The notes under the pieces were generated by a model. The model made no database searches. It saw only the letters and a program-made list of their open reading frames with translations, and had not been told where the DNA came from. This document shows, piece by piece, positions 2,881-41,513 of a DNA stretch of 48,493 nucleotides (within the stretch, counting starts at the first letter, position 1; each line of letters begins with the position of its first letter). Location of the stretch: sequence record KT367887.1; one strand, written 5' to 3'. Origin of the DNA: Klebsiella phage vB_Kp3. Both the position numbers and the translations under genes were made by a program.

Positions 2881-2901
2881 ATAGATTTTGCGCTTATCAT
2901 G

Positions 2902-2935
2902 GCCCCCGTTAACACTCACGGGGGCTTTTCTTTTG
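2902..2935 (+). terminator. Rho-independent terminator (stem GCCCCCGT/ACGGGGGC, T-run) preceded by GCTTATCATGG motif
   Basis: 8-bp GC stem, 8-nt loop, TTTTCTTTTG tail. Confidence 0.75.
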
Positions 2936-2971
2936 GGCGACTTCTTCCACGGCATCACCGACATCTATCGG

Positions 2972-3283
2972 ATGTATAAGACCGACTTAGATTACCCCAT
3001 CGCTGCGGCCGTCATGGCTACATTGCGTCACATCCAGCTCGGTCACGAAAGGCGACAGATCTGGACTAATGCGATCATGGCGGCAATGTTCGCGAAGGGC
3101 ATCACCTTCATCATCACCATCATCGGGGATTCCGTTCCGCGGATGCACTGGATCGCAAACCAGGATGCAGGCTGGATCGTTGCCTGCGTGCTTGGGTACG
3201 TTGGGATCGACAAGGTCATTCGCGTGGTTGAGCGGTATTTCCCGTCCATGAATCTCAGGGGGAAAAATGATCGGCAACCTTAA
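2972..3283 (+). CDS. Holin (class I-like, predicted 3 TMDs, charged C-terminus)
   Basis: Hydrophobic segments IAAAVMATL, IWTNAIMAAMFAKGITFIITIIG, AGWIVACVLGYVGI; position first in lysis cassette. Start uncertain (TTG 2888 or ATG 2972), no clear SD. Confidence 0.55.
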   Translation: MYKTDLDYPIAAAVMATLRHIQLGHERRQIWTNAIMAAMFAKGITFIITIIGDSVPRMHWIANQDAGWIVACVLGYVGIDKVIRVVERYFPSMNLRGKNDRQP

Positions 3284-3767
3284 AATTTACCTGCTGGCGG
3301 CACTTGCCGCCTTTTTGCTATGGCAGGGCGGCAGTTATGCACTGACCAGGTACGGCGAAAGCCGTTATGAAAGCGGCGTTACAGCTGGGATTAACAAGGA
3401 GGCTGAACGCAGAAACAAAATTGACCGTGATCTGGCCGAAATGCGCCAGAGGGAGAAAGACCAAGATGATCGCGACACGACTCGCCGGATTGACCAAGCA
3501 CGCGCTGACGCTGCTAGTGCTGCTTATGCTGCTGACCGGCTGCGCCAGCAACTCAACGCAGCCACTGCCATCGCAAAACAACACGCCTCCGCTGTCGGCG
3601 TTAGCAGTGATGCCGGAACGCTCGCCGATCTGCTCGCCGAGCTGTTCTATCAGTCAGTGCAAGCGGGTAACGAACTGGCAGCAGAAGCTGATCGATACTA
3701 CATCGCCGGGCAGCGCTGCAACACCCAGTACAACAGACTATTGCAAGCAACAAGGAGTAACAAATGA
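3267..3767 (+). CDS. Rz-like i-spanin (N-terminal TM, periplasmic coiled coil)
   Basis: N-terminal TM MIGNLKIYLLAALAAFLLW then charged helical region; contains embedded +1-frame lipoprotein ORF. Confidence 0.75.
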   Translation: MIGNLKIYLLAALAAFLLWQGGSYALTRYGESRYESGVTAGINKEAERRNKIDRDLAEMRQREKDQDDRDTTRRIDQARADAASAAYAADRLRQQLNAATAIAKQHASAVGVSSDAGTLADLLAELFYQSVQAGNELAAEADRYYIAGQRCNTQYNRLLQATRSNK

Positions 3768-4267: not shown

Positions 4268-4297
4268 AGGGGGCCATTTGGCCCCTTGTTATTTATT
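4268..4297. terminator. Bidirectional rho-independent terminator (GGGGCC-ATTT-GGCCCC flanked by A-run and T-run)
   Basis: Separates rightward lysis genes from leftward operon ending at 4293. Confidence 0.75.
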
Positions 4298-4532
4298 GCA
4301 GCAAAAAGAAACTTAACATCACATACCCGGGAGCGTATTCGCCGACGTCGCAGACGTGCGTGATCCTGGCGTCAACCACTCTTCCTGTGTAAGAGTCTTT
4401 CTCAGTCCATTCGCGGAGGTTGAGCGTATCGCCTACAGCAAAGTGACGATCAGCCTTGCGTAATTCCGCGCGCTTCTTCCCGAACTTAACGGCGTGGAAG
4501 TGAACCGGGAGGATTTTAAGATCGTGGATCAC
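4293..4532 (-). CDS. DUF3850 (ASCH/PUA-like) domain protein
   Basis: MIHDLKILPVHFHAVKFGKKRAELRKADRHFAVGDTLNLREW is the characteristic DUF3850 pattern. Confidence 0.65.
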   Translation of the reverse strand: MIHDLKILPVHFHAVKFGKKRAELRKADRHFAVGDTLNLREWTEKDSYTGRVVDARITHVCDVGEYAPGYVMLSFFLLQ

Positions 4533-9280: not shown

Positions 9281-10942
9281 TCAGTGGTTATCACGGCAGC
9301 TACCCATCAGCGGGGGAACGGCATCTTTGATCGTGTAGTAAGGGTTACGGGCTTCGTGTGGGTTAGACTCTTTGCTCAGGTGTCCCAGCTCAGCCATTTT
9401 GTAAATTGCGTCGCGCACTGACTCCCGGGAATACGGCGAGCCGTCAGCCTTGAACACCGTGGAGCTGATACGGTGCAGGATCTCCTTGTATGGCGCGGTT
9501 CCGTGCGGCTCCGCCCTCAGCAGCGAATACACGGCCTCCTGCAATGGCGTGTACACGTGCGCCTGGCGCTTCTCCTCCGGTTCAAAGTGCTCCTCATCCG
9601 TTCCGGCGTCCATATCGTAAACGCGGTCTTCGAACAGCCAGACCTTCGTCGCGTCGTCGATGTAGATGAAGTCTGGCCGATCGACCTCCTGCCCTGGGGC
9701 AAGTTTCTTCTCATACGTGCTTTTCTTCTTCGCCTCAACGTCCTTCGCGAACACCGGCACCTGAAAGCCTTTGAGCTTAAAGCGCCCCTTCAAACCACCC
9801 TGGCGGCTCTTGCCGACGTTCAGGACAGTGTAGCCTGTCTCCTTCTGGCGGGCGTTCAATCCCTTGCCGGTCTGTGTCTTCTCGCGCACCAGGCTGAACG
9901 TTTTATACACCGCGCCCTTCGCTGCCGAGCCGCCACGAGACTCAAGATCATACTGGCCGGACATCAGGCTTCCCTTGCTGACATGCGGGATGAAGATCCC
10001 GGCGCAGTTGAGGGACTCAGCGAACCGGTGCCCGGCAGTGGTGATCAGCTGCTGGTCGGTGTTGCTATTTTCGTCCATGCTCACGCCGTTATTGTTGGCC
10101 GCCGCCAGGTGGAACATTTTGCTGTCGAAGATGACCAGATTCACCGGCCTGCCGTTGGCGAACTGCAACACGCGACTCTTCTGGATGCGCAACTTTCCTG
10201 GCTCCATCAGGTCGGCCGGGCGCTTGAACACCTTGATCCAGTCACGGAGATTGACGCCGGTGCGCAGCGACCAGGCGGCCACCTGCAACTCAACGCTGTC
10301 CGGGTCTTCGGTGAAGAACACGCTGACGCCCGGGTTACACACGCGGAAGCAGTTGAACAGCGGGCGACCCATGGCGAGGCTGACCGCCATTTGCACCAGC
10401 AGCGTCGTTTTCCCTGCGCCTGCATCACCGTTGATCTCGTTGATGGTGCGACGGTTCAGCAGGCCTTCGATCACCGGGTCATAGAAGTCCGGCGAGGTGT
10501 TCAGCACGTATTCGCCCGGGTCGTAATCTTTCAGCGCTGGATCTTCGACAAGTCCCTGCTCAACCTCTTCGGCGAGACGCTTTGCCACCTCAACGCGCTG
10601 GGCGGATAAGTCCATCCCGAGATTCTGCTTTTCATTCTCCTCGCGAACGATGCGTTGCAGCTCAAGGTGGCGCTGACCGGCGTCTTTCTTCTTCGGCTTA
10701 GGTGGTTCAGGTGGAACAGGTGGCGCTACTTCTTCCGCCTGTTCACGCTCCTCCACCTCAGCACGTGCTACCTGGTCGAAGTAAGCCTGCATGTCGGCCA
10801 TTTCCTGCGAATAGGCTTCGTCCTCTTCCTCGCGGGTCATTGGCTGGTTGAGGATGTCCGCCGCTTCGTGCTGTTTCTCCTGATCGCCCAGTAACGCCTT
10901 CCAGTCGTCGGGCGTCATCGGCCTTTTGTTCTCTTCGTTCAT
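9281..10942 (-). CDS. Replication protein with RecA-fold P-loop ATPase (AAA_25/DnaB-RepA-like) and acidic N-terminus
   Basis: Walker A GDAGAGKTTL; SD AGGAGG 5 nt before ATG 10942. Confidence 0.7.
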   Translation of the reverse strand: MNEENKRPMTPDDWKALLGDQEKQHEAADILNQPMTREEEDEAYSQEMADMQAYFDQVARAEVEEREQAEEVAPPVPPEPPKPKKKDAGQRHLELQRIVREENEKQNLGMDLSAQRVEVAKRLAEEVEQGLVEDPALKDYDPGEYVLNTSPDFYDPVIEGLLNRRTINEINGDAGAGKTTLLVQMAVSLAMGRPLFNCFRVCNPGVSVFFTEDPDSVELQVAAWSLRTGVNLRDWIKVFKRPADLMEPGKLRIQKSRVLQFANGRPVNLVIFDSKMFHLAAANNNGVSMDENSNTDQQLITTAGHRFAESLNCAGIFIPHVSKGSLMSGQYDLESRGGSAAKGAVYKTFSLVREKTQTGKGLNARQKETGYTVLNVGKSRQGGLKGRFKLKGFQVPVFAKDVEAKKKSTYEKKLAPGQEVDRPDFIYIDDATKVWLFEDRVYDMDAGTDEEHFEPEEKRQAHVYTPLQEAVYSLLRAEPHGTAPYKEILHRISSTVFKADGSPYSRESVRDAIYKMAELGHLSKESNPHEARNPYYTIKDAVPPLMGSCRDNH

Positions 10943-10967
10943 CGTTTCCTCCTGCTTTGGTTCGGAC

Positions 10968-10996
10968 ATTATTCACGGCAGGTAATACCGTGTCAA
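10968..10996 (-). promoter_or_regulatory. Sigma70 promoter (leftward) for replication gene: -35 TTGACA (10991-10996), 17-nt spacer, -10 AATAAT (10968-10973); inverted half-sites CACGG/CCGTG in spacer
   Basis: Hexamers on minus strand; shares TTGACACGG-ATTA with the 6776 promoter. Confidence 0.5.
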
Positions 10997-11290
10997 TATC
11001 AATTACTTTCCGCCTGAAAAACAGGCTAAAACCTGTAAACCAATACTATTTATAGACTGTAAATACCCGCTATTGGGATTTTCATCACGCCGTTAGTTTT
11101 CAATGGCTTACAGAGTACGTTTTTTGAGCAGCTGTAAACCAAAGCGATTCAAGCGGAGCCACTCACCACCTCAACGCCACCTGAACATCAGGCGGACTTC
11201 GCAAGTTATTGATAACAAAGGACTACCTGAAATTTTCAGGAGGAAAAGGGTCATACTACCGAACTTTTAAGTGTCTGATATTGAAGGGTT

Positions 11291-11312
11291 AATTTCAGGT
11301 GTTAGGTGGTAT
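11291..11312 (+). promoter_or_regulatory. 22-bp element AATTTCAGGTGTTAGGTGGTAT (copy A); 21 nt downstream lies -10 TATAAT (11334-11339), then an imperfect hairpin with T-run (11369-11417) before terS
   Basis: Identical 22-mer found inverted at 28411-28432. Confidence 0.55.
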
Positions 11313-11471
11313 CCCTATTATATATAAAACCCATATAATTACAGAAACACGTACACCCTTACGCACATGGGGGAAGAAAAAAGCGCTACGCAGTGGCTGC
11401 GCGTTTTTATTCTCCCCACCATGCCGTATAGGGGTAAACTGGGGCAGAGCCACTTGAAAGAGGAAACCAAC

Positions 11472-11969
11472 ATGACTGACAAGGTGAAGGTGACGACACC
11501 GCGGAACCCAGTCGGCAGACCAACCAGCTACACCGAGGACATGCCGGAAAAACTCCTTGAATATTTCCGTGTCGACGTTGATGACTATATCCAGCACTCA
11601 CACACGACAGCCGGGAAGAGCAACATTCGCATTAACCCAAAGCACATGCCGTCTATTCTCAACTTCTGCGAGAGCATCGGCATCACGACGACGACTTTTC
11701 ACGACTGGCGTTCGAAGCATAAGCAATTTGCTGTCGCTTACACGCAGGCGCGCGAGCTTTACGAGCAGATGATTCTGAATATTGGCTTCGCCACGAACAG
11801 CACTTTCGCGACCTTCATGCTGAAAGCGAACTTCGGCTACCGCGACAACACTGAGATCGTCGTGACCGGTGACGCCAATAAGCCGGTGCGGTTGAAGATC
11901 GTCAGCGAGCGGCCGAAGGATGAGAAGCCGCGCGAGGAGTCCGAGGCCGTCGACTGGGGTGACGACTAA
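11472..11969 (+). CDS. Terminase small subunit
   Basis: N-terminal PRNPVGRPTSYTEDMPEKLLEYF HTH motif and TFHDWRSKHKQFAVAYTQARE pattern typical of TerS; SD GAGGAAA. Confidence 0.75.
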   Translation: MTDKVKVTTPRNPVGRPTSYTEDMPEKLLEYFRVDVDDYIQHSHTTAGKSNIRINPKHMPSILNFCESIGITTTTFHDWRSKHKQFAVAYTQARELYEQMILNIGFATNSTFATFMLKANFGYRDNTEIVVTGDANKPVRLKIVSERPKDEKPREESEAVDWGDD

Positions 11970-11977
11970 ATACTGCT

Positions 11978-12007
11978 TGACATATATATGACTGCGCAGG
12001 AATATAG
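11978..12007 (+). promoter_or_regulatory. Candidate sigma70 promoter (TTGACA 11978-11983; weak -10 GAATAT/AATATA) followed by GC hairpin 11997-12025
   Basis: Perfect -35 hexamer between terS and next gene. Confidence 0.3.
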
Positions 12008-12046
12008 GGGCCGGGCAATCCTGCCCCTACTGCACAGGACATCAAA

Positions 12047-13645
12047 ATGACTGAATCACTGAAATTCACCTCCCCGGCACCGGCACCAGTTAGCGGCGTT
12101 CTCGCTTGCGCTTCCCGCGAGGTAGGCGCAGAAAACAATCTCAAGCTGGCGCGCGCCATCGTCGTCGAGGTCGCAGACCGTGGTGCTGAGCAGCACGTGA
12201 AAATCAAGGTTGGCACCCTGCTTGCCCTGGCGCTGGGCCTTGAGGGCGTCATGAAGGTTATGGCGTCGCTTGAGGCTGATCGCGACAGCAAGATCAAGGC
12301 GCTCAGCGAGTGGGAGGTGTTCGGCGTCGAAATGCTTGAGCAGAAGTTCAAGTGCCTGCCGGTGGTCAACATGAAGCCGGAAGAGAAGCGTAAGCGCATT
12401 GCCGCTGGCATAGAAACGATCGTGCAGCGCCTGGATGAGCGCTCAGAAGATCTTTCTGTAGCAGCTGGCAACCTGAACGACTGGCGCACGCACACCCGGC
12501 ACGTCCTGGATACCTACTTCGCCACCTACCCTACCAGCAACGCCAACGACCGCAATCTTCGCCTAATCATGACGGCGGCGATCGAAAGCGCACACAACAA
12601 AAACAAGCAGCTGAACAAGGACTATGACGCCATGCGCAACAGCGCCGACGCATCAGACCAGCTTCGGAAGGCCGCAGAGCGTGAGCGGGACGACGTGATC
12701 AACCTCAACCGCAACGCAGCGGAAGAGATCACCCACTTGCAAGAACGCGCCAAACACCTCGATCAAACCATCGTCGACCTGGTGCGCCAGCGCGACAAGA
12801 ACGGGCAGCAGGCTAACCAGCTGGCTAACGAACTGGTCGAGAAACGCAAGGAGATCAGCAAGCTGTTAGAAATCATTGACCGCCTGCACACAGAGATCGC
12901 AGAGAAGCGCGACATCATCGGCGCAGCAACGCAACGCTGCACTGCGCTCACCAATGACGCGAAGGCGATGAGCAAGAATAACAGCGAACTCGCAGCACGC
13001 CTGGCTAACGCTGGTCTGGAGATCGCCAACTATAAGCAGCTCGTGGAAGACCTGAAAGCAGGCACCGCCGTTGACCGTGACACCGTGAAGCGCCAGGCGG
13101 ACACCATTGATCGCCTGTATGGTCAGCTCAATGAGTGGCACGACTGGGCTACAGACGTCATTTGCAGCCCGTCATCACTGGGCGGGGAATCGCAGCGGAC
13201 TGCCATCACCGCAGCTATGCGCAAGCGCAAGGATCGCATTGAGTCACTGGAGCAGATCGTGAAGGATGTCGTTGCACAGCGTGACGCGTGGGTTATTTGG
13301 GCGCGCGGGTACACCAACGCACCGGCAGGCATTCACAGCACTGAACAACTTCTTTCGATGGTGAAGGCAAAGGTGAAGGCGACCGCAGAGGGCATCGACG
13401 GGCCAGCGGAGCACACCATGTGCGGCACACTGAAAGTCACCCAGCTGAAAGGGGATGTCGTTGCCAGCAATGGAAGCTGGGCCATGCTCAAACATGGCAA
13501 CGCGGTGATCGCCGGAAACATTCCCGCCAGCAAGCTGACCCTGGGCGAGGAGATGAAAGAGGCCATTCGCGAAGTCGTCCGGGAGGAGATGAGCAGCGCG
13601 TTAAAGCAAGCCATCAAGAACGAACTTGATAAGCTGACCATGTAA
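12047..13645 (+). CDS. Large coiled-coil protein of unknown function (532 aa) inserted between terS and terL
   Basis: About 200 aa continuous heptad-like helical region (QLNKDYDAMRNS...LYGQLNEWHDW); no recognizable enzymatic motif. Confidence 0.7.
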   Translation: MTESLKFTSPAPAPVSGVLACASREVGAENNLKLARAIVVEVADRGAEQHVKIKVGTLLALALGLEGVMKVMASLEADRDSKIKALSEWEVFGVEMLEQKFKCLPVVNMKPEEKRKRIAAGIETIVQRLDERSEDLSVAAGNLNDWRTHTRHVLDTYFATYPTSNANDRNLRLIMTAAIESAHNKNKQLNKDYDAMRNSADASDQLRKAAERERDDVINLNRNAAEEITHLQERAKHLDQTIVDLVRQRDKNGQQANQLANELVEKRKEISKLLEIIDRLHTEIAEKRDIIGAATQRCTALTNDAKAMSKNNSELAARLANAGLEIANYKQLVEDLKAGTAVDRDTVKRQADTIDRLYGQLNEWHDWATDVICSPSSLGGESQRTAITAAMRKRKDRIESLEQIVKDVVAQRDAWVIWARGYTNAPAGIHSTEQLLSMVKAKVKATAEGIDGPAEHTMCGTLKVTQLKGDVVASNGSWAMLKHGNAVIAGNIPASKLTLGEEMKEAIREVVREEMSSALKQAIKNELDKLTM

Positions 13646-13698
13646 CCCATCAAAATCATTAACCAGCGGCCCACGGCGGGCCGCAATGAGGTGAATCA

Positions 13699-13911
13699 AT
13701 GCAGACCTTCTACCCAGTCTTTAGCGCCATTCTGTGCATGTTTTGCTTTCTCTGCTGCAAAGGGTGGGCGACGGCCCTGGATATCGGAGCCGGGAACGAC
13801 AAGCGCATGATCAGGATGGCTCGCACCTTCGACATCGCTGGCGACGTGTTCCGCTGGGCGTGCTGGCTGTTCATCGTCGCAGGCTTCCTTCGCACCCTCG
13901 GATTGTTCTGA
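13699..13911 (+). CDS. Small membrane protein (70 aa, 2 TM, Cys-rich)
   Basis: SD TGAGGTGA; hydrophobic N- and C-terminal segments. Confidence 0.5.
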   Translation: MQTFYPVFSAILCMFCFLCCKGWATALDIGAGNDKRMIRMARTFDIAGDVFRWACWLFIVAGFLRTLGLF

Positions 13912-13995
13912 TTGCTTACACTTTGTACCATTTGCCCGGTTGATCACCGAAGTGACTGACTGATAGGCTTTAATGAGACTCGCAGCGAGGTGGAA

Positions 13996-14199
13996 ATGAT
14001 GGGGATCGTAATGGGTGTGTGGTTGGCGCTGGTGACAGCTATCGCGATGATCGCAATTCACATGGCCGCAATGGACAGGGAGCGGCTCAAGGTCAACCCG
14101 GTCAGCCAGATCACCAAGCTGGTGCTCGCGGTATTCCTCCTGGTCGGCGTAGCGCACATCGCCACCAGGTACACAGCTTTCCTCCGCGTGCTATCCTGA
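13996..14199 (+). CDS. Small membrane protein (67 aa, 2 TM)
   Basis: SD GAGGTGG; MMGIVMGVWLALVTAIAMIAI...LVLAVFLLVGVAHI. Confidence 0.5.
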   Translation: MMGIVMGVWLALVTAIAMIAIHMAAMDRERLKVNPVSQITKLVLAVFLLVGVAHIATRYTAFLRVLS

Positions 14200-14218
14200 C
14201 CTGACAACTGCTATCATG

Positions 14219-14245
14219 GCCCCGTTAACAAAACGGGGCTTTTTT
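14219..14245 (+). terminator. Rho-independent terminator (GCCCCGTT/AACGGGGC, 6 Ts) preceded by GCTATCATGG motif; T-run abuts terL ATG
   Basis: Near-identical to terminator at 2902-2935. Confidence 0.7.
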
Positions 14246-15607
14246 ATGTCTATCCAATCTGACGCCAGTCAATTCATTGACCTGACACTCACACCACCGC
14301 AGAACGACTTTCTGCAACTGTCGTGCAAACACCCGGCCTTCGTGGCTGGCTTCGGTACAGGCAAGAGTCAGACCATGGCCGTGTCGTCCGTGCTTGACGC
14401 CTCAGAGGGTGGCGCAGATGCCACGATCGCCATCCTTGAGCCAACGTTCGACCTGTGCAAGCTGATCGCCGTGCCGCGTATCGAACAGATCCTCTCTGAG
14501 CTGGGCATTCGCTTTAAGACCGTCGGCAACAAGGAGATCTACACCTCCCACGGCGGGATCGGCGACTTCCTCTTTCGCTCCATGGACAACCCGGCTCGCC
14601 TGGTCGGCTGGGAGGCGTTCCGCATCCACTGCGATGAGATCGACACCCTCAAGAAAGAGGCGGCCAAAGGGGTATGGCGCGCAGCAATCGCCCGCTGCCG
14701 TCAGTCACCGAAGGAGTATGAGCCGTTCGACTTCCTTCCGTCCGACCGCCCGCTGAACAGGGTTAGCGCCTACTGCACGCCCGAGGGGTTCAACTTCCTG
14801 TATGGCCGCTGGGCGAAGGACAAGGAGCGCAGCCGAAAGGCCGGTTATCTCATGATCCAGGCCGCCACCTCATCCAACCCATTCCTGCCTGCCGACTACC
14901 TGGACGCCCTGCGCGCCAGCTACGACCCGCAGCGCTTCGAAGCCTACGCGAAGGGACAATTCGTCAACCTGAAATCGGGCACGGTCTATAAGAACTTTAA
15001 GCGCGAGCTGAATGACACCGACGTGGAGATCATCCCGGGCGAGACGCTGATCGTCGGCCAGGACTTCAACGTTAACAAGATGGCGACCGTCGTCTACGTC
15101 GAGCGCTATGGCGAGGACGGGCTTGCCGAACTGCATGCAGTGGATGAGCGACACAACGGCATCGACACACCGGACGTCATCCGCTGGCTGGTCGAGAAGT
15201 ACCAGAATGCGGGAAATGGCTACATCCACCCGATCGAGGTCTACCCGGATGCGTCAGGCGGCAACACCAGCAGCAAGAACGCCAGCATGTCAGACCTGTC
15301 GATGCTCATGAGCGCAGGGTTCGACGTCTACTGTGGGCAGGCCAACCCTGCCGTGAAGGACAGGGTGATCAGTGCGAACACCCTGTTCTGTAACGCCAGC
15401 GGCCGCCGTCGGCTATTCGTGAGCAGCAAGCGGTGCCCGCAATTCGTCGAATGTCTGGAGCAGCAGATCTACGATGACAAGGGTAAGCCTGACAAGGAGG
15501 CCGGGAAGGATCACATGAACGACGCAGGCACCTACCCGGTGGTCTATAAGTTCCCTGTCGTGCATAATGGCACGATCTCAGCAAATAATATTGAATGGGT
15601 ACGATGA
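14246..15607 (+). CDS. Terminase large subunit
   Basis: Walker A AFVAGFGTGKSQ, Walker B IHCDEID, C-terminal nuclease-like region; start could alternatively be ATG 14216 inside the terminator stem. Confidence 0.82.
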   Translation: MSIQSDASQFIDLTLTPPQNDFLQLSCKHPAFVAGFGTGKSQTMAVSSVLDASEGGADATIAILEPTFDLCKLIAVPRIEQILSELGIRFKTVGNKEIYTSHGGIGDFLFRSMDNPARLVGWEAFRIHCDEIDTLKKEAAKGVWRAAIARCRQSPKEYEPFDFLPSDRPLNRVSAYCTPEGFNFLYGRWAKDKERSRKAGYLMIQAATSSNPFLPADYLDALRASYDPQRFEAYAKGQFVNLKSGTVYKNFKRELNDTDVEIIPGETLIVGQDFNVNKMATVVYVERYGEDGLAELHAVDERHNGIDTPDVIRWLVEKYQNAGNGYIHPIEVYPDASGGNTSSKNASMSDLSMLMSAGFDVYCGQANPAVKDRVISANTLFCNASGRRRLFVSSKRCPQFVECLEQQIYDDKGKPDKEAGKDHMNDAGTYPVVYKFPVVHNGTISANNIEWVR

Positions 15608-19026: not shown

Positions 19027-19121
19027 GTAAGTACAGGCCCGGCAATGCCGGGCTTTTTCTTGCTTGTCCAGTAGTTGCCGGTTATCATCCAGACGTTTAA
19101 TAACTCAAAGGACATCGCGCG

Positions 19122-20231: not shown

Positions 20232-20250
20232 GCGAAGAAGTGAATAACAT

Positions 20251-20273
20251 GGGGGCCGATTGGCCCCCTTTTC
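20251..20273 (+). terminator. Rho-independent terminator (GGGGGCC-GATT-GGCCCCC + TTTT)
   Basis: After capsid gene. Confidence 0.75.
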
Positions 20274-22927: not shown

Positions 22928-22943
22928 AGCGTGCTATCATCAT

Positions 22944-22964
22944 GGCGGCTTAGGCCGCCTTTTT
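22944..22964 (+). terminator. Rho-independent terminator (GGCGGC-TTAG-GCCGCC + TTTTT) preceded by GCTATCATCATGG
   Basis: After major tail gene. Confidence 0.65.
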
Positions 22965-22983
22965 CATATCTGGAGACAAGACA

Positions 22984-23373
22984 ATGGCTGCAAAATTCAA
23001 GTTAGTACCTGCTGGCACGTTCGAACTTCCGATCCTGATCACCACCGTAGGGCAGGATGAGCCTACAGAGCTGAAATTCACGTTCAAGCGCATGCCTCTG
23101 ACCGAGCTGAAAGAGAAGCAGGAAGCGATGGCGAAGCGCGTGCAGGAGATGGATGAGGAATACAAGGGCAAAAAGCTGTCCGTCGTCGAAGATAGCGTGC
23201 TGCAATATCCGTTGATGGCCGATTTTGTGCTGGATATCGCAACCGGCTGGGAGCTGTCCGACAAGTTCACGAAAGAGAACCTGATCACCCTGTTCGATAA
23301 CTACCCGACGGCGTTTATGTCGATCAGCGTTGGCTACCAGTCCGAGCTGTGGAAGCTGCGCCAAAAGCACTAA
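22984..23373 (+). CDS. Tail assembly chaperone (G-like)
   Basis: 129 aa acidic protein between major tail and tape measure genes. Confidence 0.6.
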   Translation: MAAKFKLVPAGTFELPILITTVGQDEPTELKFTFKRMPLTELKEKQEAMAKRVQEMDEEYKGKKLSVVEDSVLQYPLMADFVLDIATGWELSDKFTKENLITLFDNYPTAFMSISVGYQSELWKLRQKH

Positions 23374-23684
23374 CCGCCGCGATTGAGGGTCTGTATTTCC
23401 CCGATCCGCCGCAGCAGCTGGTCGATAATTTCGGGGGGGAGCTGGAAGACTACCGTCCAGAAGTGGAGCTATCAGCAGAGATTGTTGATAGCTTTTATTT
23501 TTACCAGCGTATTGATACCCAATGGCGCACGGGGCCGGGCGGTTTAATCGGCCTCGACTACAACGTGATCCCCGTCATGGCTGACCTGTATGGCGTCAAG
23601 TTCGATCGCCTGCTCATGGATGACCTGGCAATCATGGAGGGGGCCGCGATCAGAGTTCTCATGAGCAGGAGTGATACAGCATGA
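23301..23684 (+). CDS. Tail assembly chaperone -1 frame extension (T-like; expected G-T fusion by frameshift)
   Basis: -1 frame open from 23301, overlaps end of G ORF; candidate slip site CCAAAAG 23361-23367. Confidence 0.45.
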   Translation, partial: LPDGVYVDQRWLPVRAVEAAPKALTAAIEGLYFPDPPQQLVDNFGGELEDYRPEVELSAEIVDSFYFYQRIDTQWRTGPGGLIGLDYNVIPVMADLYGVKFDRLLMDDLAIMEGAAIRVLMSRSDTA

Positions 23685-26527
23685 GTGAAAACACAGAACG
23701 CTTGATCGTCGACGTCGACGCCAGCGGGGTCAACGCGGGGGCCAAATCCCTCGCAGACCTTGTTGACGCGGCGCAGGACGCAGGCAGGGCAGCGGACGGG
23801 CTGGGCGACAAGTTCGACCAGGTGAAGCCGTCAGCCGACTCAGCAGCCGCAGCGGTCGACAACTTCAACAACGAGGCGAAGCAGACGCAGGAGGCGGCCG
23901 GGGATGCTGCTGTGGGCCTGTACCGGCAGAATCAGGAGCTTCAAAACCTCCTCGACCGCATCCGACCAACGCGCGTTCAGCTTCGTGACCTGGCGCAGCA
24001 GCAGGAGGCACTGGCGAAGGCTCAGGCTAATGGCCTGCTGGGGGCGAAGGAGGCCGAGGAGTACAACGCTATCCTCGCCAACCGTGCCGGGATCATCGAC
24101 CGCAACGACGCTGCTATGCGCGGCCTGAATGTGACGTCTGAGAAGCAGAAGGCGCTACAGCAGGGATTAACCATCACTACCGGGCAATACCGCGCTGCTA
24201 TGGGTATGTTACCGGCGCAGATGACCGATATCGTCACCCAGCTGGCGGGTGGTCAGAATCCATTCCTGATCATGATCCAGCAGGGCGGGCAGATTAAAGA
24301 CTCGTTCGGCGGACTGGGCAACACCTTCCAGGCGCTTAAACAATTCATTTCCCCTTCCTTCCTCGGGCTGGCTGGCGCGACAGCAGCCATCGCTGCAATG
24401 GGTTATGCAGCCTACACCAGCGCAGACCAGGCCGATCGACTCGCGGCATCGGTGACGCTCATGGGTGGGGCAGGCTTTAAGTCAGCCGAAGAGCTGAACA
24501 GGGCCGCCGTCATGATCCAGAAGTCAACTGGCGACAGCATTAGCAGCATCACCGACCGGCTGATCGAGCTGAACAACAAGGGCACGATGACAGCCGACAT
24601 GATGGAGAAGGTGGCGATCTCAACGTCGAAGTTGTCAGATGCCGGGCTGGACGCTGGCGACGTCATGAAAGACTTCGATAACCTGGTGAAGAACCCGATC
24701 AAGTCTATCGCCGCGCTCAATGAGCAGTATGGTTTCATGACCGAAGCGCAGATGAAGCACCTAATCCAGACGCAGAAGGAGAAGGGTGAGCAGGCTGCTG
24801 CTGCCGAAGCGCTGGACATCTACACAACGGCCATGAATAAGCGGGCCGATGACGTGATCGAGAAGACTGATAACGTCGGTCAGGCATGGAAGACGCTGAA
24901 AACCGCCGCGTCGGATGTCTTTAACGATATGGGGATCGTGCTGCGCTCGTGGGGGAACCGCGCCGTCGATATTTTCAAGATGGTCAAGCTATCGATCGAC
25001 GACCTGCTGAACTATCTTGCGCAGATGGACAGCAAATTTACGCTGGGCGTTGCTGACCTGCTGGACAAGGTGCCGGGCGTTGATGGCCGTGGCGTTCTCC
25101 GGGCGATGGGGATCGACGTCGAAACCGTCGAGAAAAATGGCCGGGAGTCCATCGAGAAGGGCAAGCAGATCGCGAAGGAGTTCGCGGAGGTCAGCAAGCG
25201 GGCCTTTGAGAGTCAGGCAGACGCTGAGGCGCGGGCGCGCAACGCCAACGGTGCTACCGGCAGCGGTGCTACCGATGAGAAGAGCAGGGAAGCGGTCAGC
25301 AAGCTGGCGAATGAGTCAACGAAGCACAACAAGGAGAAGGCCGTCACCGTTGCGCAGGGTGATCGCATCCTTGAGCAGTATCAGGCGCAGGAGCTGGCAT
25401 TACGGGCGCAGATCAAGACGCTGAAAGACCGTAACGCCTTCGACGTCAACGCCTCCGAGCAGATGAAGAACTATCAGCTGTTGGTCGCGAAGATCTCCAT
25501 CCTTGAGGGCATCCGTGCTGACGCCAAAGGCCGGGCACTCACCAAGGACGAACAGTCACTTCTGGCGAGCAAAGAGGAGATTCTCGCGAAGGCCAAGACC
25601 GTCGGCCTGCTGGGCGATCAGGTCAAGCAGCTGGAGCGGCAGGCGCAGATCACCGATGAACTGACCCGCAGCGGCAATGACCTGTCTGTTCAGGTGGCGG
25701 CCATTAACGCCTCATGGGGTCTATCAGCCGATGAGGCTGCGCGGCTGCTGGAGAACATGCAGCGAGCGGCGGCCCTCCGGGACAAAGGCGCGACTCAGGA
25801 GCAAATCGACGAGGACGCACGCCAGCGTGAAGCGCTGCGGCAGGCTACCGACGCGAAAACGCAGGACTGGGCAGGCGGCGCACGCTCAGCGATCGAAGCG
25901 TGGGGTAAGGATGCCACCAACACCTCAGCCAACGTGCAGAAGGCCGTCACGGGCGCAATGGACGCCGGTCTGGACTCGATCAACTCCTTCGTGATGACCG
26001 GTAAGGCGTCGTTCGCCGACTTTACCAAGTCAATCCTTGGGATGATGGTTCAGATGATCAACAAATGGCTCATGTTCAAAGCCATCCAGGGGATCGGCGG
26101 CGCGATGGGCTTCGATATGTCCAGCATCGGATTCAATGCGAAGGGTGGCGTATACGACAGCCCGTCTCTGTCTGCGTACAGCAACCGCGTCTACACCACG
26201 CCGCAGCTGTTCACGTATGACAAGCCGAAGCCGTTTGCGAAGGGCGGGGTGTTCGCCGAAGCCGGGCCGGAAGCCATCATGCCACTGGCGAAGGATTCCA
26301 GCGGGCGTCTTGGTGTTCGTGCTCAGGGCGGCGCTGGTGGCGGCGTCTCCATCGGGTCGATGGAAGTGAATGTCGACCAGAACGGGCAGGCGACGGCCAA
26401 CGTGTCAGAGTCTGGCAAGCTGGGCCGAGCCTACGGTGATGCAATGGCCGCAGCCATTCAGGACGGCATCGCCCGGGCAAGCTCCCCGGGTGGACAGATC
26501 TGGATGCTTATTAACGGTCACGCGTGA
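23681..26527 (+). CDS. Tail tape measure protein (948 aa)
   Basis: Long helical Ala/Gln-rich protein in canonical position. Confidence 0.85.
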   Translation: MSENTERLIVDVDASGVNAGAKSLADLVDAAQDAGRAADGLGDKFDQVKPSADSAAAAVDNFNNEAKQTQEAAGDAAVGLYRQNQELQNLLDRIRPTRVQLRDLAQQQEALAKAQANGLLGAKEAEEYNAILANRAGIIDRNDAAMRGLNVTSEKQKALQQGLTITTGQYRAAMGMLPAQMTDIVTQLAGGQNPFLIMIQQGGQIKDSFGGLGNTFQALKQFISPSFLGLAGATAAIAAMGYAAYTSADQADRLAASVTLMGGAGFKSAEELNRAAVMIQKSTGDSISSITDRLIELNNKGTMTADMMEKVAISTSKLSDAGLDAGDVMKDFDNLVKNPIKSIAALNEQYGFMTEAQMKHLIQTQKEKGEQAAAAEALDIYTTAMNKRADDVIEKTDNVGQAWKTLKTAASDVFNDMGIVLRSWGNRAVDIFKMVKLSIDDLLNYLAQMDSKFTLGVADLLDKVPGVDGRGVLRAMGIDVETVEKNGRESIEKGKQIAKEFAEVSKRAFESQADAEARARNANGATGSGATDEKSREAVSKLANESTKHNKEKAVTVAQGDRILEQYQAQELALRAQIKTLKDRNAFDVNASEQMKNYQLLVAKISILEGIRADAKGRALTKDEQSLLASKEEILAKAKTVGLLGDQVKQLERQAQITDELTRSGNDLSVQVAAINASWGLSADEAARLLENMQRAAALRDKGATQEQIDEDARQREALRQATDAKTQDWAGGARSAIEAWGKDATNTSANVQKAVTGAMDAGLDSINSFVMTGKASFADFTKSILGMMVQMINKWLMFKAIQGIGGAMGFDMSSIGFNAKGGVYDSPSLSAYSNRVYTTPQLFTYDKPKPFAKGGVFAEAGPEAIMPLAKDSSGRLGVRAQGGAGGGVSIGSMEVNVDQNGQATANVSESGKLGRAYGDAMAAAIQDGIARASSPGGQIWMLINGHA

Positions 26528-26535
26528 TAACCTAC

Positions 26536-26561
26536 AGCCTCCCACACAGGAGGCTTTTTTT
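26536..26561 (+). terminator. Terminator-like hairpin AGCCTCC-CACACA-GGAGGCT + 7 Ts; descending stem contains the SD (GGAGG) of the next gene whose ATG follows the U-tract
   Basis: Seen directly in sequence. Confidence 0.5.
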
Positions 26562-26924
26562 ATGGCTACATTAGACGCGTGGATCTGGCCGCTGGCGGCA
26601 GGTCAACAGGTATCAGTGAAAGACCGCAGCCGGTCGAACAGCTTCGGCGACGGCTCGCAGCAAAGCGTTTTGGAAGGCATCAACCCGTTCATTATGGAGG
26701 TGCCCTGCTCGTGGACTGGCAACGCTAAGACCGGCAACCAGATCCTATCCTTCCTGAAAGCGCACATCACCAACCCGTTCCAGATGGTTCCGCCGCATGG
26801 CGAACTGGGCCTTTACACCGTGAAATCAGGCACGATCAAATATGTCGCGCTGGGACGTGCAACCATGAACATTACCTTCACAGCCGAGCAGGCCGTGGGC
26901 ATCTACACAGGGGTGAAAGGATGA
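26562..26924 (+). CDS. Minor tail protein M (lambda gpM-like)
   Basis: FGDGSQQS... resembles lambda M (FGDGYSQR); 120 aa; position. Confidence 0.7.
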   Translation: MATLDAWIWPLAAGQQVSVKDRSRSNSFGDGSQQSVLEGINPFIMEVPCSWTGNAKTGNQILSFLKAHITNPFQMVPPHGELGLYTVKSGTIKYVALGRATMNITFTAEQAVGIYTGVKG

Positions 26925-28186: not shown

Positions 28187-28330
28187 ACGCGCTGTATCGC
28201 GTTCTGCGGCGTTTTCTTGCGTAAGACGTCCGAACGTATGGCCTGACGGCGTTAAACGCGACAGCGTGCCGTTCAGGCCCGTAGTTTTCGATTCACGAAG
28301 ATAAGAATACATCCCATAGCCATATATAAT

Positions 28331-28360
28331 AAAAACCCTCCCAAGGGAGTTTTATTTATA
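28331..28360. terminator. Bidirectional terminator (A-run, CTCCC-AA-GGGAG, T-run) inside L-K intergenic region
   Basis: Seen in sequence. Confidence 0.55.
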
Positions 28361-28410
28361 TGGTCTTGGGTATGTCTTATATGTATTTATGGTAATAAAT
28401 ATATATACCC

Positions 28411-28432
28411 ATACCACCTAACACCTGAAATT
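28411..28432 (-). promoter_or_regulatory. 22-bp element copy B (reverse complement of 11291-11312), flanked by AT-rich TATATATA on its minus-strand downstream side
   Basis: 22/22 identity with copy A. Confidence 0.55.
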
Positions 28433-28486
28433 CAGCATTGTAAATCAATGGTTTAAAATTTCAGGTGGTGCCAAGTGGAGGCAAAA

Positions 28487-29236: not shown

Positions 29237-29820
29237 GCACCATCCGACTGTACGGCGAAATGGGGGCGCGCTTCGGGCGCGTCCATCACCTCGCGGTCGA
29301 CTCCTGCGCCGAAGCAATCAGCGCCCTTTCCGCCATCATCCCCGGATTCGATCAATACATGCGAGACAGCCAGTCTCGCGGCCTGACCTTCGCCCCTTTC
29401 ATCGGAAAGCGGAACATCGGCTTCAATGAGATGTCGCAGCCAATCCCTGACGGCGAAGAATTCCGCATTGCCCCGATCATCATCGGCAACAAGAAGGGCG
29501 GCCTGTTCCAGACCATCCTGGGCGCTGCGATGATTGTCGCGGGCGTCGTGGCGTCGTTCATCCCCGGCGGGCAGGCTGTCTCCCCTTACCTCGTTGCTGC
29601 TGGTATCTCCACGGCTGCTGGCGGGGTTATGCAGATGCTTTCCCCGCAGGCGACAGGCATGAAGATCCGGGAGAATGACGCCAACGCGCCGTCATACGCC
29701 TTCGGCCAGCCGGTTAACACGACAGCACAAGGTAACATCGTTGGCGTTTTGTATGGCGAGCGTGAGATCGGGGGTGCTATCATCAGCGCCGGAATTATCG
29801 CTAACGAGGTACGTTCTTAA
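29221..29820 (+). CDS. Tail tip assembly protein I
   Basis: N-terminus resembles lambda gpI (LYGEMGARFGRVHHLAVDSCAEAISALSAIIPGF). Confidence 0.7.
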   Translation: MGNQLSTIRLYGEMGARFGRVHHLAVDSCAEAISALSAIIPGFDQYMRDSQSRGLTFAPFIGKRNIGFNEMSQPIPDGEEFRIAPIIIGNKKGGLFQTILGAAMIVAGVVASFIPGGQAVSPYLVAAGISTAAGGVMQMLSPQATGMKIRENDANAPSYAFGQPVNTTAQGNIVGVLYGEREIGGAIISAGIIANEVRS

Positions 29821-32800
29821 TGGAAATCAAAGGATACAAGGGCGGGAGTAGCAACGTGCATACCCCCGTTGAAGATCCAGACTCCCTGATCAGCAACGCA
29901 ACGGTAAGGATGCTCCTGGCGTTGTCAGAGGGTGAAACCGTGCCGATTAGCGCGGAAGACCTGCCCAAGCGCGTTTACATGGACGGGACGCCCGTTCAGA
30001 ACGATGATGGGTCGGTAAACATTCCGGGCGTAACACTGGAATATCGCAACGGCACCCCGCAGCAGGAGCCGATCAACGGCTTCCCGGCGGTGGAAAGTGA
30101 AACACGAATCAATGTGGAGCTGAAAAAGTCTTCTGCATGGGTGCGTAACATCACCAACACCGAGATCGACGCCGTCCGCATCCGAATGAATTTCCGGCTG
30201 GTCATCCAGCAGAAGGACGGGGATCGCGTAGGCGGACGCATTGAGTACCGGATTGAATACCGCAAAGTCGGCGACAGCACCTACACCGTGGCCTTCAATG
30301 GTGCTGTCGACGGCAAGCAGAAAGACAACTATGAACGCGATCACCGCATCGACCTGCCGAAGAGCAGCACTGGCTGGCAAATCCGCGTGACCCGCCTAAC
30401 TGACGACAGCACGTCTGATACCACCGTGCTCAACTCCGGGATCGTGGCTGTCACCGAGATCGTCGACGCCCGCGTTCGTTACCCGTGGACGTCCCTTCTG
30501 TTCGTCAGCTTCGACGCCAAATCGTTCCAGAACATCCCGAAAATCAGCATCAAGATGGGCGGCCGTCTGGTACTGGTTCCGTCCAACTATGACCCTGTTA
30601 ACCACACCTACAGCGGGTCGTGGAACGGGACATTTAAACAGGCGTGGACGGATAACCCGGCGTGGATCGTCTACGACATCATTCTGCACAAGCGCTTCGG
30701 TATTGGCCGCCGTATCCCGTCCTCATTCCTGAACAAATGGACGATGTACAGCATCGCACAGCGCTGCGATGAGCTGGTGACGAACGCCGACGGCACGCAG
30801 AATCGCCGTTACACCTGTAACGTGTATATCCAGAAACGCGCGCATGCGTGGAGCGTCATTCGTGACCTGGCGTCGATCTTTAACGGAATGGTCAGCTACA
30901 GCAACATGCAGCTTCAATTTGCGCAGGATGCACCGGCAGAAGTCCGCCATGTTGTGACAAACGACGACGTCGTGAACGGAACGTTCGAGTATTCCTACGG
31001 CAGCATGGCTAACCGCCGCGGGATCGCGATGGTCACTTTTGACGACCCGAAGGCGCACTATAAGACGCAGACCACTGTGGCGCAGATCAAAGACCTCGTG
31101 GAGCGTTATGGCGTTGAGCCGCTGGAAGTGTCCGGCATCGGCTGCACGGACGAATACGAAGCGCAACGTCGTGGCCTGTGGGCGCTGCTGTCGAACACCA
31201 ACGACATGCAGATCAGCTACCGCGTCGGCCTGAACGGCATCAAGTACCTGATCGGCGACGTCGTCGGCATCGCTAACCGCTACGTGCAGGGCGGTCAGTT
31301 CGGCGGGCGTGTTGCTGGCGTATCCGGCACCACCATCACCACCGACCGCATGATCTCCGACCACGTGGCAATCGGCGACAGAGTGATCGTTCGTCAAGCT
31401 GGATCGGATGGAACCTACAACCGCGTGATCAATGCAATCGCGGCTGACCGGATGTCCTTCACCGTCGACGGCACTAACCTTGATATTCAGAGCGGTGAAG
31501 TGTTCCTGCTGGATACTAAGGTGCTGGCACCTGAACTAATCCGCATCACCAAGATCACCTACAACGAGCAGGACAATAATTTCACCGTTACCGGTCTGCA
31601 ATACAGCCACTCGAAGTATTTGCAGGTTGACACCGGCGCGCGAATTGAAGACCGCCCGACATCGCTGATCCCGACCGGGCAGGTACAGGCACCCGCTAAC
31701 GTGGTGGCCGAAGGCTACAGTATCGTTAACCAGGGGATTCGCTCAGCTAACGTAAACTGTTCATGGTTCACCGTAGATCAGGCCGTCAGCTACGACATTC
31801 AGGTGCGCCGAACCTCTCAGTCAAACGGCCAGTGGTCACAGGGGTGGACTAACCTTGCCAGCCAGTCAAGCACGTCCGTTGACCTGACAAACGTTCTGAC
31901 CGGCACCTATCAGTTCCGCGTTCGTTCCGTATCCCGTGACGGCGGTTCGTCTCAGTGGGTCGAGTCGAATCAGGTGTTCGTTGACGGCAAGCGTGGCAGC
32001 ATCCCGGCAGTAGCTGGCCTGAACGGCGTAGGCATCGTTAACGGCATTACCTGGCGTTGGGTGACTGGCACGGATGATCTGATCGATATGAAGTCGACAG
32101 AGCTACAGTTCCAGCGCATTGACGGCAATGGTGCTCCGGTTGGTGATTGGATCGATCTCAGCGTCGTGACCTACCCTACCGGGACGTTCACACAGTCCGG
32201 CCTGAAATTTGCCGAACGCGTGCAGGTGCGCGCCCGCTTTGTGTCGTCATATAGCGATGCTGGCGAGTGGAGCGCCCCGGTCATGGCGATGACGTCCGAC
32301 AACATGGACGACTATTACCAGAACATCGACGACGCGATCAAAGGCTCCGACACCTACGGCGAACTTACCAGCGGCATCAAAGACGTAAGCGACAGCGCAC
32401 AGGCAGCGAAAGACGCCGCGCAGGCCGCGCAGGTTACTGCTGACGGAGCAGTGACAACCAACCAGCAGCAGCAGCAGCAGCTGAACAACCAGCTGGCCGA
32501 GATCCAGAAGAACGCGCAGGACATCACCAACACCGCTAACGCGGGGGCGGCAAACGCCAGTGCAATCGCTCAGGAGATCCTTGATCGCAAGGCTGGCGAC
32601 ATCGCGAACGCCAACAAGGCAGCTCAGGACGTGGCCGACGCTATCGCGAAGGCTGAGACGGATGACGCACAGGTGGCAGCTGACGCAGCGGCCAACCTGC
32701 TGACAGCGAAGAACGAAGTAGAAGCGCAGATCAGCACCACCAATACCACAATGCAGGACGGCTTCGACAGCCTGGCGCAGCAGATGGCATCCATTTCCGC

Positions 32801-41309: not shown

Positions 41310-41513
41310 TTATTCACCCTCTACTTTAACGAGTTCATGCCATTCGATGCCCAGGGGCTTCGCAAGGCGGATCATGGTTTCAATGGTCGGGAACTCACGG
41401 CCATTGTCATAACGGCATACGCGGCACTGCGCAATGCCTGCTGCTTTCGCCAGACCACGCTGGGAAAACCCAGCGCGCTCGCGGTGCTCTTTCAAAATCA
41501 GTGTAATGGTCAT
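41310..41513 (-). CDS. XRE-family (Cro/CI-type) HTH transcriptional regulator
   Basis: FSQRGLAKAAGIAQCRVCRYDNG HTH_3 motif. Confidence 0.7.
   Translation of the reverse strand: MTITLILKEHRERAGFSQRGLAKAAGIAQCRVCRYDNGREFPTIETMIRLAKPLGIEWHELVKVEGE

Follow-up and report, generated by a model that had tools for sequence, protein, structure and literature searches.

In the genome of Klebsiella phage vB_Kp3 (sequence record KT367887.1; the window is the whole stretch of 48,493 nucleotides), three intergenic sites, located before the holin gene (S1), before the large terminase gene terL (S2) and after the tail tube gene (S3), are probably composite cassettes combining a promoter, a terminator and a ribosome-binding site (RBS). 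Such a cassette would open at its 5′ end with a sigma70-type -10 hexamer, continue with a G+C-rich hairpin and a U-tract, and close with the start codon of the following gene. We hold the terminator and the Shine-Dalgarno (SD) sequence embedded in the hairpin with considerably higher confidence than the composite as a whole; promoter activity, the position of the transcription start, termination efficiency and a temporal (late) regulation are what we infer from the nucleotide sequences. An earlier note on this DNA had described the three sites as a conserved terminator module serving as a specific recognition element, namely a binding site for an antiterminator or another RNA-binding protein, an RNase processing site, or a device for translational coupling. 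The comparison with related phages partly supports this interpretation.

S1 (2891-2935, cgcTTATCATGGCCCCCGTTAACACTCACGGGGGCTTTTCTTTTG) and S2 (14208-14248, cTGCTATCATGGCCCCGTTAACAAAACGGGGCTTTTTTATG) are each other's best non-self match within the whole window. A gapped local alignment of 2895-2935 with 14209-14248 gave 34 identical columns out of 41, with four one-base gaps and three mismatches, which bears out the near-identity pointed out in the earlier note, including the central GTTAAC (2908-2913 and 14224-14229). S3 (22932-22964) keeps the prefix on a different stem, as had also been noted: it has only the 9-mer TGCTATCAT in common with S2 and only ATCATGGC with S1. Three copies of TGCTATCAT lie on the plus strand of the window and none on the minus strand. 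All three sites were found at the places given for them, and their hairpins fold, each with a U-tract directly 3′ of the stem (TTTTCTTTT, TTTTTT and TTTTT, respectively). Judged by this structure, the three are intrinsic terminators. The following gene begins immediately after or within the U-tract at S1 and S2 (holin TTG at 2933, terL ATG at 14246), and the gene after S3, encoding the tail assembly chaperone (ATG 22984), has an SD of its own (GGAGA, 22972-22976).

To see what is conserved, we compared relatives of graded distance: the EKq1 group (~80% nucleotide identity), JVSB2/ATCEA85, K70PH128C1 (here K70) and KLB22/KW1E (86, 78 and 66% amino-acid identity in terL, respectively), Dickeya phage Setonix, and Serratia phage Smarc2, which was held out. 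Orthologous sites were located in six lineages besides vB_Kp3, and the resulting alignment comprised 13 cassettes from seven lineages and four classes of site. Invariant in it were the first, second and last base of the hexamer (T1, A2 and T6), CCC, GGG, part of the T-tract and the TG of the start codon, while the inner hexamer bases and the loops varied. The similarity is therefore not confined to the G+C-rich stem and the U-tract, and the claim that conservation exceeds the needs of a generic terminator stands, in the form of a T1/A2/T6 hexamer abutting the stem, a fixed stem polarity and a start codon. Among relatives the hexamer reads TATCAT, TATTAT, TATCCT, TATATT, TACTAT, TAGAAT, TAAGAT, TAATAT, TAACAT or TATGAT; the orthologues of the S1 hexamer are TATTAT, TATCCT, TATATT, TACTAT, TAACCT and TATTAT. 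At S2, TGnTATCAT is kept in EKq1, K70, JVSB2 and ATCEA85 and is replaced by TAGAAT in KLB22 and KW1E, and the S3 element appears as TGCTATCAT, TGCTATTAT, TGATAAGAT (KLB22) and TGTTAATCT (Smarc2). The cassette layout in the held-out Smarc2 is identical. More distant phages with a terL at ~50% identity (Jersey-like phages) have terS overlapping terL and no cassette, and are uninformative for this comparison.

The hairpins themselves evolve as RNA structures. Compensatory changes affect three of the six consensus stem pairs in the 13-cassette alignment, for instance G-C to U-A or A-U beside the C-run, with the S2 cases in JVSB2 and KLB22. Loop lengths range from 5 to ~14 nt among the relatives, a variation that fits an RNA hairpin and speaks against a protein operator on DNA; a DNA operator for a dimeric protein was rejected on account of this variable spacing of the arms. 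Searches against Rfam, with the whole window at gathering thresholds and with both S1 and S2 at permissive thresholds, yielded no match apart from sub-threshold small RNAs (sRNAs) that carry a terminator.

By its base pattern, a hexamer TAnnnT with fixed T1, A2 and T6 bears the signature of a sigma70 -10 element. Of 80 terminator-like hairpins in six genomes of the phage group, 27 (34%) had a TAnnnT ending 0-3 nt ahead of the stem, compared with 12 of 171 (7%, about chance) in unrelated phage contigs (Fisher p = 2.5e-7). The distance between hexamer and stem in the 80 hairpins showed a sharp peak at 0, with 15 cases against a background of 0.005-0.013 per position. Cassette hexamers were preceded by TG at -15/-14 in 15 of 29 cases vs 8.4% (p = 2e-9; a stop codon supplies the TG in five of the 15), and both their best -35 match (3.07 vs 2.41, p = 3e-4) and their inner -10 matches (4.38 vs 3.72, p = 2e-6) were elevated; in all of these statistics orthologous sites are counted, so that the observations are not independent. 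The conservation pattern, together with the held-out Smarc2 genome, is the stronger argument for a promoter-like element. A consensus scan recovered complete promoters directly before the pre-holin hairpin of two relatives: in Smarc2, TTGCCA-18-TATTAT ends at 33006 and the hairpin begins at 33007; in KLB22, TTGACC-17-TACTAT ends at 15014 and the stem begins at 15013, followed by T7 and the holin ATG. Each of these promoters stops exactly one base before the hairpin. As a control only, we scanned IMG/VR with the pattern ATGGCCCC N7-16 GGGGCTTTT; among the matches listed, TAnnAT was present in 6% of 81 unrelated ones, which is the chance level.

In vB_Kp3, TG at -15/-14 combined with A2 and T6, the hallmark of an extended -10 element, is found at S2 and S3 (TGCTATCAT), and S1 reads GCT-TATCAT at this place; a purine is located 7-8 nt downstream of the hexamer at all three sites. 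Several observations weigh against a promoter here. S1, S2 and S3 have poor -35 regions, with two to three of six matches compared with five of six in orthologues or analogues of KLB22, Smarc2 and Setonix, and S1 has no TG. A very G+C-rich discriminator and start region such as GGCCCCG disfavours open-complex formation. At the post-tape-measure sites described below, the hexamers have C at position 5, the TG comes from a stop codon and there is no purine at the expected start. By inspection, about 10 of 19 cassettes have UAAC in the loop, a recurrence for which a promoter does not account, and an unregulated promoter before a holin gene would need additional timing control. Finally, the case for promoter activity consists of sequence statistics throughout, on orthologous and hence non-independent sites. 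A literature search for transcript maps of this phage group found none.

By an alternative explanation, the sites are plain intrinsic terminators, paralogous through duplication or gene conversion (possibly helped by the phage's own Erf/ExoVIII recombination genes), with a prefix retained by descent and genes downstream expressed by partial read-through. Every site is indeed a textbook terminator, the -35 regions in vB_Kp3 are weak, and the likeness of S1 and S2 resembles concerted evolution, with CCCC(C)GTTAACA present twice in vB_Kp3 and CCCCCGTGT twice in K70. However, descent alone leaves unexplained why T1, A2 and T6 stay fixed in seven lineages amid changing inner bases, loops and flanks, and why the same layout occurs at non-paralogous stems (post-capsid, post-tape-measure, Smarc2 and Setonix). 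The TG and -35 enrichment and the complete promoters of KLB22 and Smarc2 are not accounted for either. Moreover, five to six strong terminators stand in series in the structural operon and would, with masked RBSs, leave terL and the tail genes expressed at very low levels. We therefore regard plain terminators as an unlikely explanation, albeit one to be taken seriously. By their presence in all Klebsiella-group lineages examined, S1 and S2 appear to be ancient paralogues, and their near-identity would reflect shared constraints from promoter, terminator and RBS together with common ancestry.

The earlier note had stated that holin and terL lack an SD. This does not hold: a G-run in the descending arm of each hairpin (2920-2924 for holin TTG 2933, 14235-14238 for terL ATG 14246) lies 7-8 nt upstream of the start codon and pairs with the anti-SD at -8.6 (S1) and -5.0 kcal/mol (S2), on par with the GGAG sites of neighbouring genes. 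It is the only purine-rich stretch upstream of either start. From its position and pairing, this G-run is taken as the SD of holin and terL, masked by the hairpin; in computed structures it was 0% unpaired in read-through RNA and 20-37% unpaired in RNA beginning at the predicted start site. An SD in the descending arm also accounts for the fact that the S1 and S2 stems always run from C-run to G-run. The suggestion that translation is involved was thus well founded, through an SD embedded in the stem. An element beyond the terminator exists as well, although it reads as a DNA -10 element plus an RBS and not as an RNA recognition site.

The same comparison bears on gene starts, on which GenBank records disagree: terL is annotated from an ATG at the foot of the hairpin (14216) in Mingus, and for the holin gene the records of MUC-5 and Mingus give ATG 2972, that of K34PH164 TTG 2933. 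The holin N terminus MGDFFHG is conserved from TTG 2933, with ATG 2972 being a Leu codon in JVSB2 according to the protein alignment, and the terL N terminus MSIQSDA is conserved from ATG 14246. Alignment with the relatives favours TTG 2933 and ATG 14246, which would be of practical use as gene-start corrections. An N-terminally extended terL from ATG 14216 was rejected, as its frame is not conserved.

Taken as composite cassettes, the sites would work as follows. Transcripts arriving from upstream, i.e., from the replication/methylase genes at S1, a moron-like unit at S2 and the tail tube gene at S3, would be terminated. Any read-through RNA would carry a masked RBS, since the SD lies inside the stem, so that leakage could not be translated. 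RNA polymerase starting ~7 nt past the hexamer would initiate within the ascending arm or at the loop; the local transcript, without the 5′ arm, would form no terminator and have its SD partly free, with the U-tract serving as spacer between the SD in the descending-arm G-run and the start codon at S1 and S2. Holin or terL, and the genes after them, would be expressed from this locally started RNA. The tight abutment of hexamer and stem would follow from the need to start inside the stem, and the U-tracts touch the holin and terL start codons, which leaves no room for another promoter. Two units would be insulated in this way, the lysis genes from the early/middle operon, and terL with the head genes from the variable terS-terL interval. 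UAAC in the loops may have a leader function just upstream of the SD or bind a factor.

The recurring loop sequence is also an argument for a quite different mechanism, in which the hairpin RNA (the loop UAAC, perhaps with the prefix) is bound by a phage antiterminator or another RNA-binding protein, causing read-through and freeing the SD. UAAC is present in unusually large S1/S2-type loops in most lineages, with several strong terminators one after another, either antitermination or re-initiation is needed, and a gene beside the lysis cassette (4293-4532, minus strand) codes for a small ASCH/DUF3850 protein whose fold is predicted to bind RNA. Yet GTTAAC is gone from both EKq1 sites and from S1 of K70, the loop motif is missing in Setonix too, and loop length varies as described. 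The conserved prefix is a spaced T-A-n-n-n-T, as in a DNA -10 element, rather than a contiguous RNA motif. Neither Pfam nor PHROGs identified an N- or Q-like protein among the proteins tested, which did not include every open reading frame (ORF) of the window; the families searched contained no antiterminator homologue, the upstream flanks showed no alternative antiterminator fold by eye, and Rfam gave no match. We consider such RNA binding, which the earlier note had proposed, doubtful on these grounds, although a loop-binding factor would remain compatible with the recurring UAAC. A nut- or qut-like site is likewise at odds with what was found: Rfam gave no match for boxA or boxB RNA, the hairpin runs into a U-tract, and no other promoter lies close upstream of the sites. 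The RNase processing site suggested alongside is not borne out in the form of an RNase E site (RN|WUU), which by inspection the conserved positions do not fit; nor do they fit an IHF site (WATCAANNNNTTR). The idea that the prefix is an sRNA seed complementary to a start region was dropped as well, since the phage contains no CCATGATAGC-like target.

A TAnnnT hexamer could also act on elongating polymerase, as a sigma70-dependent pause element that tunes termination at the adjoining hairpin. Such pause elements are the arrangement that loads the Q proteins of lambdoid phages, and the hexamer plus TG are targets of sigma70 regions 2 and 3 in pausing as in initiation; the hexamer is moreover positioned directly upstream of a terminator. 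This explanation is nonetheless very improbable. No Q homologue was found among the proteins tested, and any promoter is many kilobases away from the sites, a distance over which little sigma is retained. Pausing predicts neither the -35 enrichment at correct spacing nor the complete promoters in relatives, and the abutment peak at distance 0 is expected from a start inside the stem and not from a pause.

Translational coupling, the last of the mechanisms put forward in the earlier note, would have ribosomes from the upstream gene re-initiate at the stem-foot ATG and melt the hairpin, thereby permitting translation or read-through. An ATG was reported inside the ascending stem; it is present, but only its G belongs to the stem, with A and T ending the hexamer TATCAT, and any hexamer with AT at its end, set against a stem with G as its first base, produces an ATG. 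It lies 17-19 nt past the upstream stop codon at S1 and S2 and is in frame with terL in vB_Kp3, where some GenBank records place the gene start, and out of frame with holin. Among relatives, however, the ATG is missing from S1 of JVSB2, K70, KLB22 and Setonix and from S3 in each of the five relatives compared there (with CAGGG, CGGGG and others in its place), it is shifted against the terL frame in EKq1 (by one extra T) and JVSB2, and it has no SD. Coupling is largely refuted by these comparisons and appears the least credible of the mechanisms weighed here. The same lack of conservation of ATG and frame, and the lack of visible alternative pairing in the flanks, argue against an attenuator or leader peptide.

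Arrangements related to the three sites recur elsewhere in the late region (Table 1). Five of the six plus-strand copies of TATCAT lie 29-44 nt before late-gene starts, and five of the six internal terminators of the window have the hexamer, compared with neither of the two bidirectional terminators at operon ends. Before the major capsid gene, TATCAT is the -10 part of a promoter-like pair, TTGCTT-17-TATCAT, of which both hexamers and their spacing are kept in four lineages (vB_Kp3, EKq1, JVSB2 and K70) while the spacer sequence varies. The post-capsid hexamer has the orthologues TAATAT (JVSB2, K70) and TAAGAT (Setonix). At the post-tape-measure unit, before the minor tail gene at 26562, the 3′ arm of the hairpin is a canonical SD (AGGAGG), and this layout recurs in EKq1, K70, KLB22, Setonix and Smarc2.

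Table 1. Positions in the window of the predicted cassette elements, related units and adjoining genes
Feature	Position	Strand	Description
S1, -10-like hexamer TATCAT	2895-2900	+	Abuts stem; no TG; weak -35 region TTTCAA, 18-nt spacer
S1, terminator hairpin	2901-2926	+	GGCCCCCGT/ACGGGGGCT, loop TAACACTC; 9 bp, 8-nt loop; -17.9 kcal/mol, z -3.1
S1, U-tract	2926-2935	+	TTTTCTTTT; overlaps holin start codon TTG 2933-2935
S2, extended -10-like element TGC-TATCAT	14209-14217	+	Abuts stem
S2, terminator hairpin	14218-14240	+	GGCCCCGTT/AACGGGGCT; -15.7 kcal/mol, z -3.45
S2, U-tract and terL start	14240-14248	+	T6, then at once ATG 14246
S3, extended -10-like element TGC-TATCAT	22932-22940	+	3 nt before stem
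S3, terminator	22944-22964	+	Hairpin GGCGGC-TTAG-GCCGCC (22944-22959) and T5; -13.5 kcal/mol, z -1.85; after tail tube gene
Unit before major capsid gene	19036-19088	+	Terminator hairpin 19036-19054; TTGCTT 19060-19065, 17-nt spacer, TATCAT 19083-19088
Post-capsid unit	20245-20268	+	TAACAT abutting hairpin GGGGGCC-GATT-GGCCCCC; next gene with own SD
Post-tape-measure unit	26525-26564	+	Stop TGA and TAACCT, 2 nt, hairpin AGCCTCC...GGAGGCT, T6, ATG 26562
Holin gene, lambda S family	2933-3283	+	Pfam Phage_holin_3_1, E 7e-8; annotations in relatives
Large terminase gene (terL)	14246-15607	+	Pfam Terminase_6N and Terminase_6C; tblastn

The closest known system appears to be the promoter-early stem-loop (PeSL) cassettes of T4-like myoviruses, in which a sigma70 promoter is joined to a stem-loop with G/C runs, where transcripts from upstream are terminated (Arbiol et al. 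2010, PMC2839356; Comeau et al. 2014, PMC4122927). Both activities of PeSL cassettes have been demonstrated experimentally (PMC2839356; PMC4122927), and subclasses have the stem-loop either overlapping the -10 element or just downstream of it before the start site (PMC2839356). Like these, the cassettes of vB_Kp3 are small repeated intergenic units with a promoter-like -10 element, a stem-loop, and an SD and start codon at the 3′ end. Their stem-loop, a terminator by structure, has G/C runs and adjoins the -10 element at a distance of 0-3 nt. PeSL cassettes flank variable ORFan regions in hyperplastic parts of T4-like genomes, and S2 bounds the variable interval between terS and terL. In contrast, the phages considered here are ~48-kb siphoviruses of Klebsiella, E. 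coli, Serratia and Pectobacterium, and their cassettes precede lysis, packaging and structural genes instead of early ORFans. Most vB_Kp3 copies have TGn in place of a good -35 element or AT-rich upstream region, the stem-loop has a full U-tract, and three of the units (S1, S2 and post-tape-measure) have their SD within the 3′ arm. PeSL cassettes occur in dozens of copies and are associated with recombination and mini-circles, whereas there are two to three sequence-similar copies per genome here. We therefore place the vB_Kp3 cassettes, on the resemblance of their sequences, near the PeSL family but outside it as defined.

Should the promoter part be confirmed, these cassettes of ~50 bp would account for expression of the lysis, packaging and structural genes despite strong terminators set directly against their start codons, in a group of enterobacterial siphoviruses that includes Klebsiella phages considered for therapy. 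The PeSL idea would then extend beyond the early genes of T4-like phages, with the new twist that the terminator stem contains the RBS and thereby restricts translation to RNA initiated locally. Such cassettes could also serve as compact insulator-promoter-RBS parts in synthetic biology.

Other systems share single features. With Rho-independent terminators in general the sites share a G+C-rich hairpin of 6-9 bp, a U-tract behind it and a location after genes, but generic terminators need neither a TAnnnT abutting the stem nor an SD in the 3′ arm, and the terminators of the control phages did not show the hexamer beyond the chance level. TGCTATCAT at S2 and S3 matches the extended -10 consensus TGnTATAAT at seven of eight specified positions, without a usable -35 element. 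Thermus phage P23-45, whose gp39 binds RNA polymerase and also antiterminates, is an example of a phage programme that shifts to extended -10 promoters (PMC3351154). Unlike there, no gp39- or AsiA-like factor was identified in vB_Kp3, and the role of the elements as promoters is predicted. The early promoters of vB_Kp3 are canonical (TTGACA-17-TAnnnT), so together with the predicted extended -10-type elements two promoter classes would coexist in this phage. The late region of lambda comprises Q, pR′, tR′ and S, with the sdi stem-loop upstream of S. Both lambda and vB_Kp3 have a terminator directly upstream of a holin gene of the lambda S family and an RNA stem-loop involving its translation-initiation region. 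They differ in that no Q homologue was found among the tested vB_Kp3 proteins, that promoter-like element and terminator overlap instead of being ~200 nt apart, and that the vB_Kp3 holin has no conserved dual-start motif (Met14 is Leu in JVSB2).

Recycling termination and facilitated re-initiation by E. coli RNA polymerase are a general phenomenon, in vitro and genome-wide, and not a defined sequence element (Kang 2020, Harden 2020, summarised in PMC11347151). With a terminator directly beside a predicted promoter, re-initiation after RNA release is conceivable at the cassettes too. As a speculative extension that we rate as improbable, the sites could perform a "transcript reset", in which the terminated polymerase stays on the DNA and starts again from the -10 element, which lies under 35 bp behind it; the loop UUAAC immediately before the SD might add a function like that of a translational enhancer. 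RNA with a masked RBS would be swapped for fresh RNA started inside the stem with an open RBS, and the serial terminators of the late operon would be relay stations, not stops.

The vB_Kp3 stretch is a complete or near-complete siphovirus genome of ~48.5 kb. It is 99.5% identical over the tested stretch to Klebsiella phage vB_KpnS-MUC-5, and the phage group consists of 32 closely related unclassified Klebsiella phages, among them HSE3 and EKq1 (PMC10793312). Pfam identified the genes flanking S3 as those for the tail tube protein (upstream) and the tail assembly chaperone (downstream).

Directly upstream of holin, an ORF at 2353-2880 encodes a protein of 175 aa with few homologues, no Pfam match and membership in PHROG 10558 (function unknown); a conserved GDI...YEVKS motif in its alignment is typical of PD-(D/E)xK nucleases. 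It was considered as a Q-like antiterminator and rejected, given the lack of a Pfam match, the PHROG of unknown function and the PD-(D/E)xK-like motif. Downstream of holin, a hairpin with T-tract (GGCGGCACTTGCCGCCTTTTTGC, 3296-3311) that resembles the S3 hairpin is located within the first spanin codons and encodes the transmembrane segment; it is kept in JVSB2 and annotated there as a terminator. Among the tested proteins, the ASCH/DUF3850 protein mentioned above and an XRE-family helix-turn-helix protein encoded directly past the end of the late operon (41310-41513, minus strand) were the only ones recognised as regulator-like.

The interval between terS and terL (12047-14199) contains an ORF of 532 aa without Pfam or PHROG match and two small ORFs. 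It is preceded at 11970-12046 by a canonical promoter (TTGACA-17-GAATAT, at 11977), followed at once by a hairpin, AGGGGCCGGGCAATCCTGCCCCT, without a U-tract. The interval is read as a moron-like unit with its own promoter at 11977. Its content differs in each lineage, with 489 aa in EKq1, 620 and 144 aa in JVSB2, 390 aa and three further ORFs in K70, and ~17 ORFs in KLB22. In Dickeya phage Setonix (L192, ~9348-11513), tblastn found terL as two pieces ~865 nt apart, which suggests an intron, an intein or a homing-endonuclease insertion.

Additionally, a motif AATTTCAGGTG(K)T forms two convergent inverted pairs, one at 11222-11234 (minus) and 11291-11303 (plus), upstream of terS and ~31 nt before a perfect TATAAT at 11334, and another at 28420-28432 (minus) and 28457-28469 (plus), in a 290-nt AT-rich non-coding gap (28187-28474) amid the tail genes. 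Allowing up to two mismatches, the motif has seven matches vs 1.08 expected, a number reached in none of 100 shuffles; these are candidate binding sites for a regulator or the terminase. Within the tail genes, a strong hairpin with T-tract (GAGCTATCAGCAGAGATTGTTGATAGCTT TTATTTTT, 23466-23494) lies inside the overlap of the tail assembly chaperone ORFs (22984-23373 and 23349-23684) and is kept in EKq1 and JVSB2; it is possibly linked to a programmed frameshift.

A gene at 29820-39896 encodes a GpJ-like tail tip protein of 3358 aa with an N-terminal FNIII-A_GpJ and a C-terminal Phage_Tail_Tip domain. N4-type hairpin promoters served by a virion RNA polymerase within this protein were considered and rejected, as it is GpJ-like and has no polymerase domain. 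Between ~33.6 and 39 kb the gene contains at least five degenerate copies of repeats of ~100-137 nt, and the length of the protein among relatives ranges from 1164 to 3396 aa.

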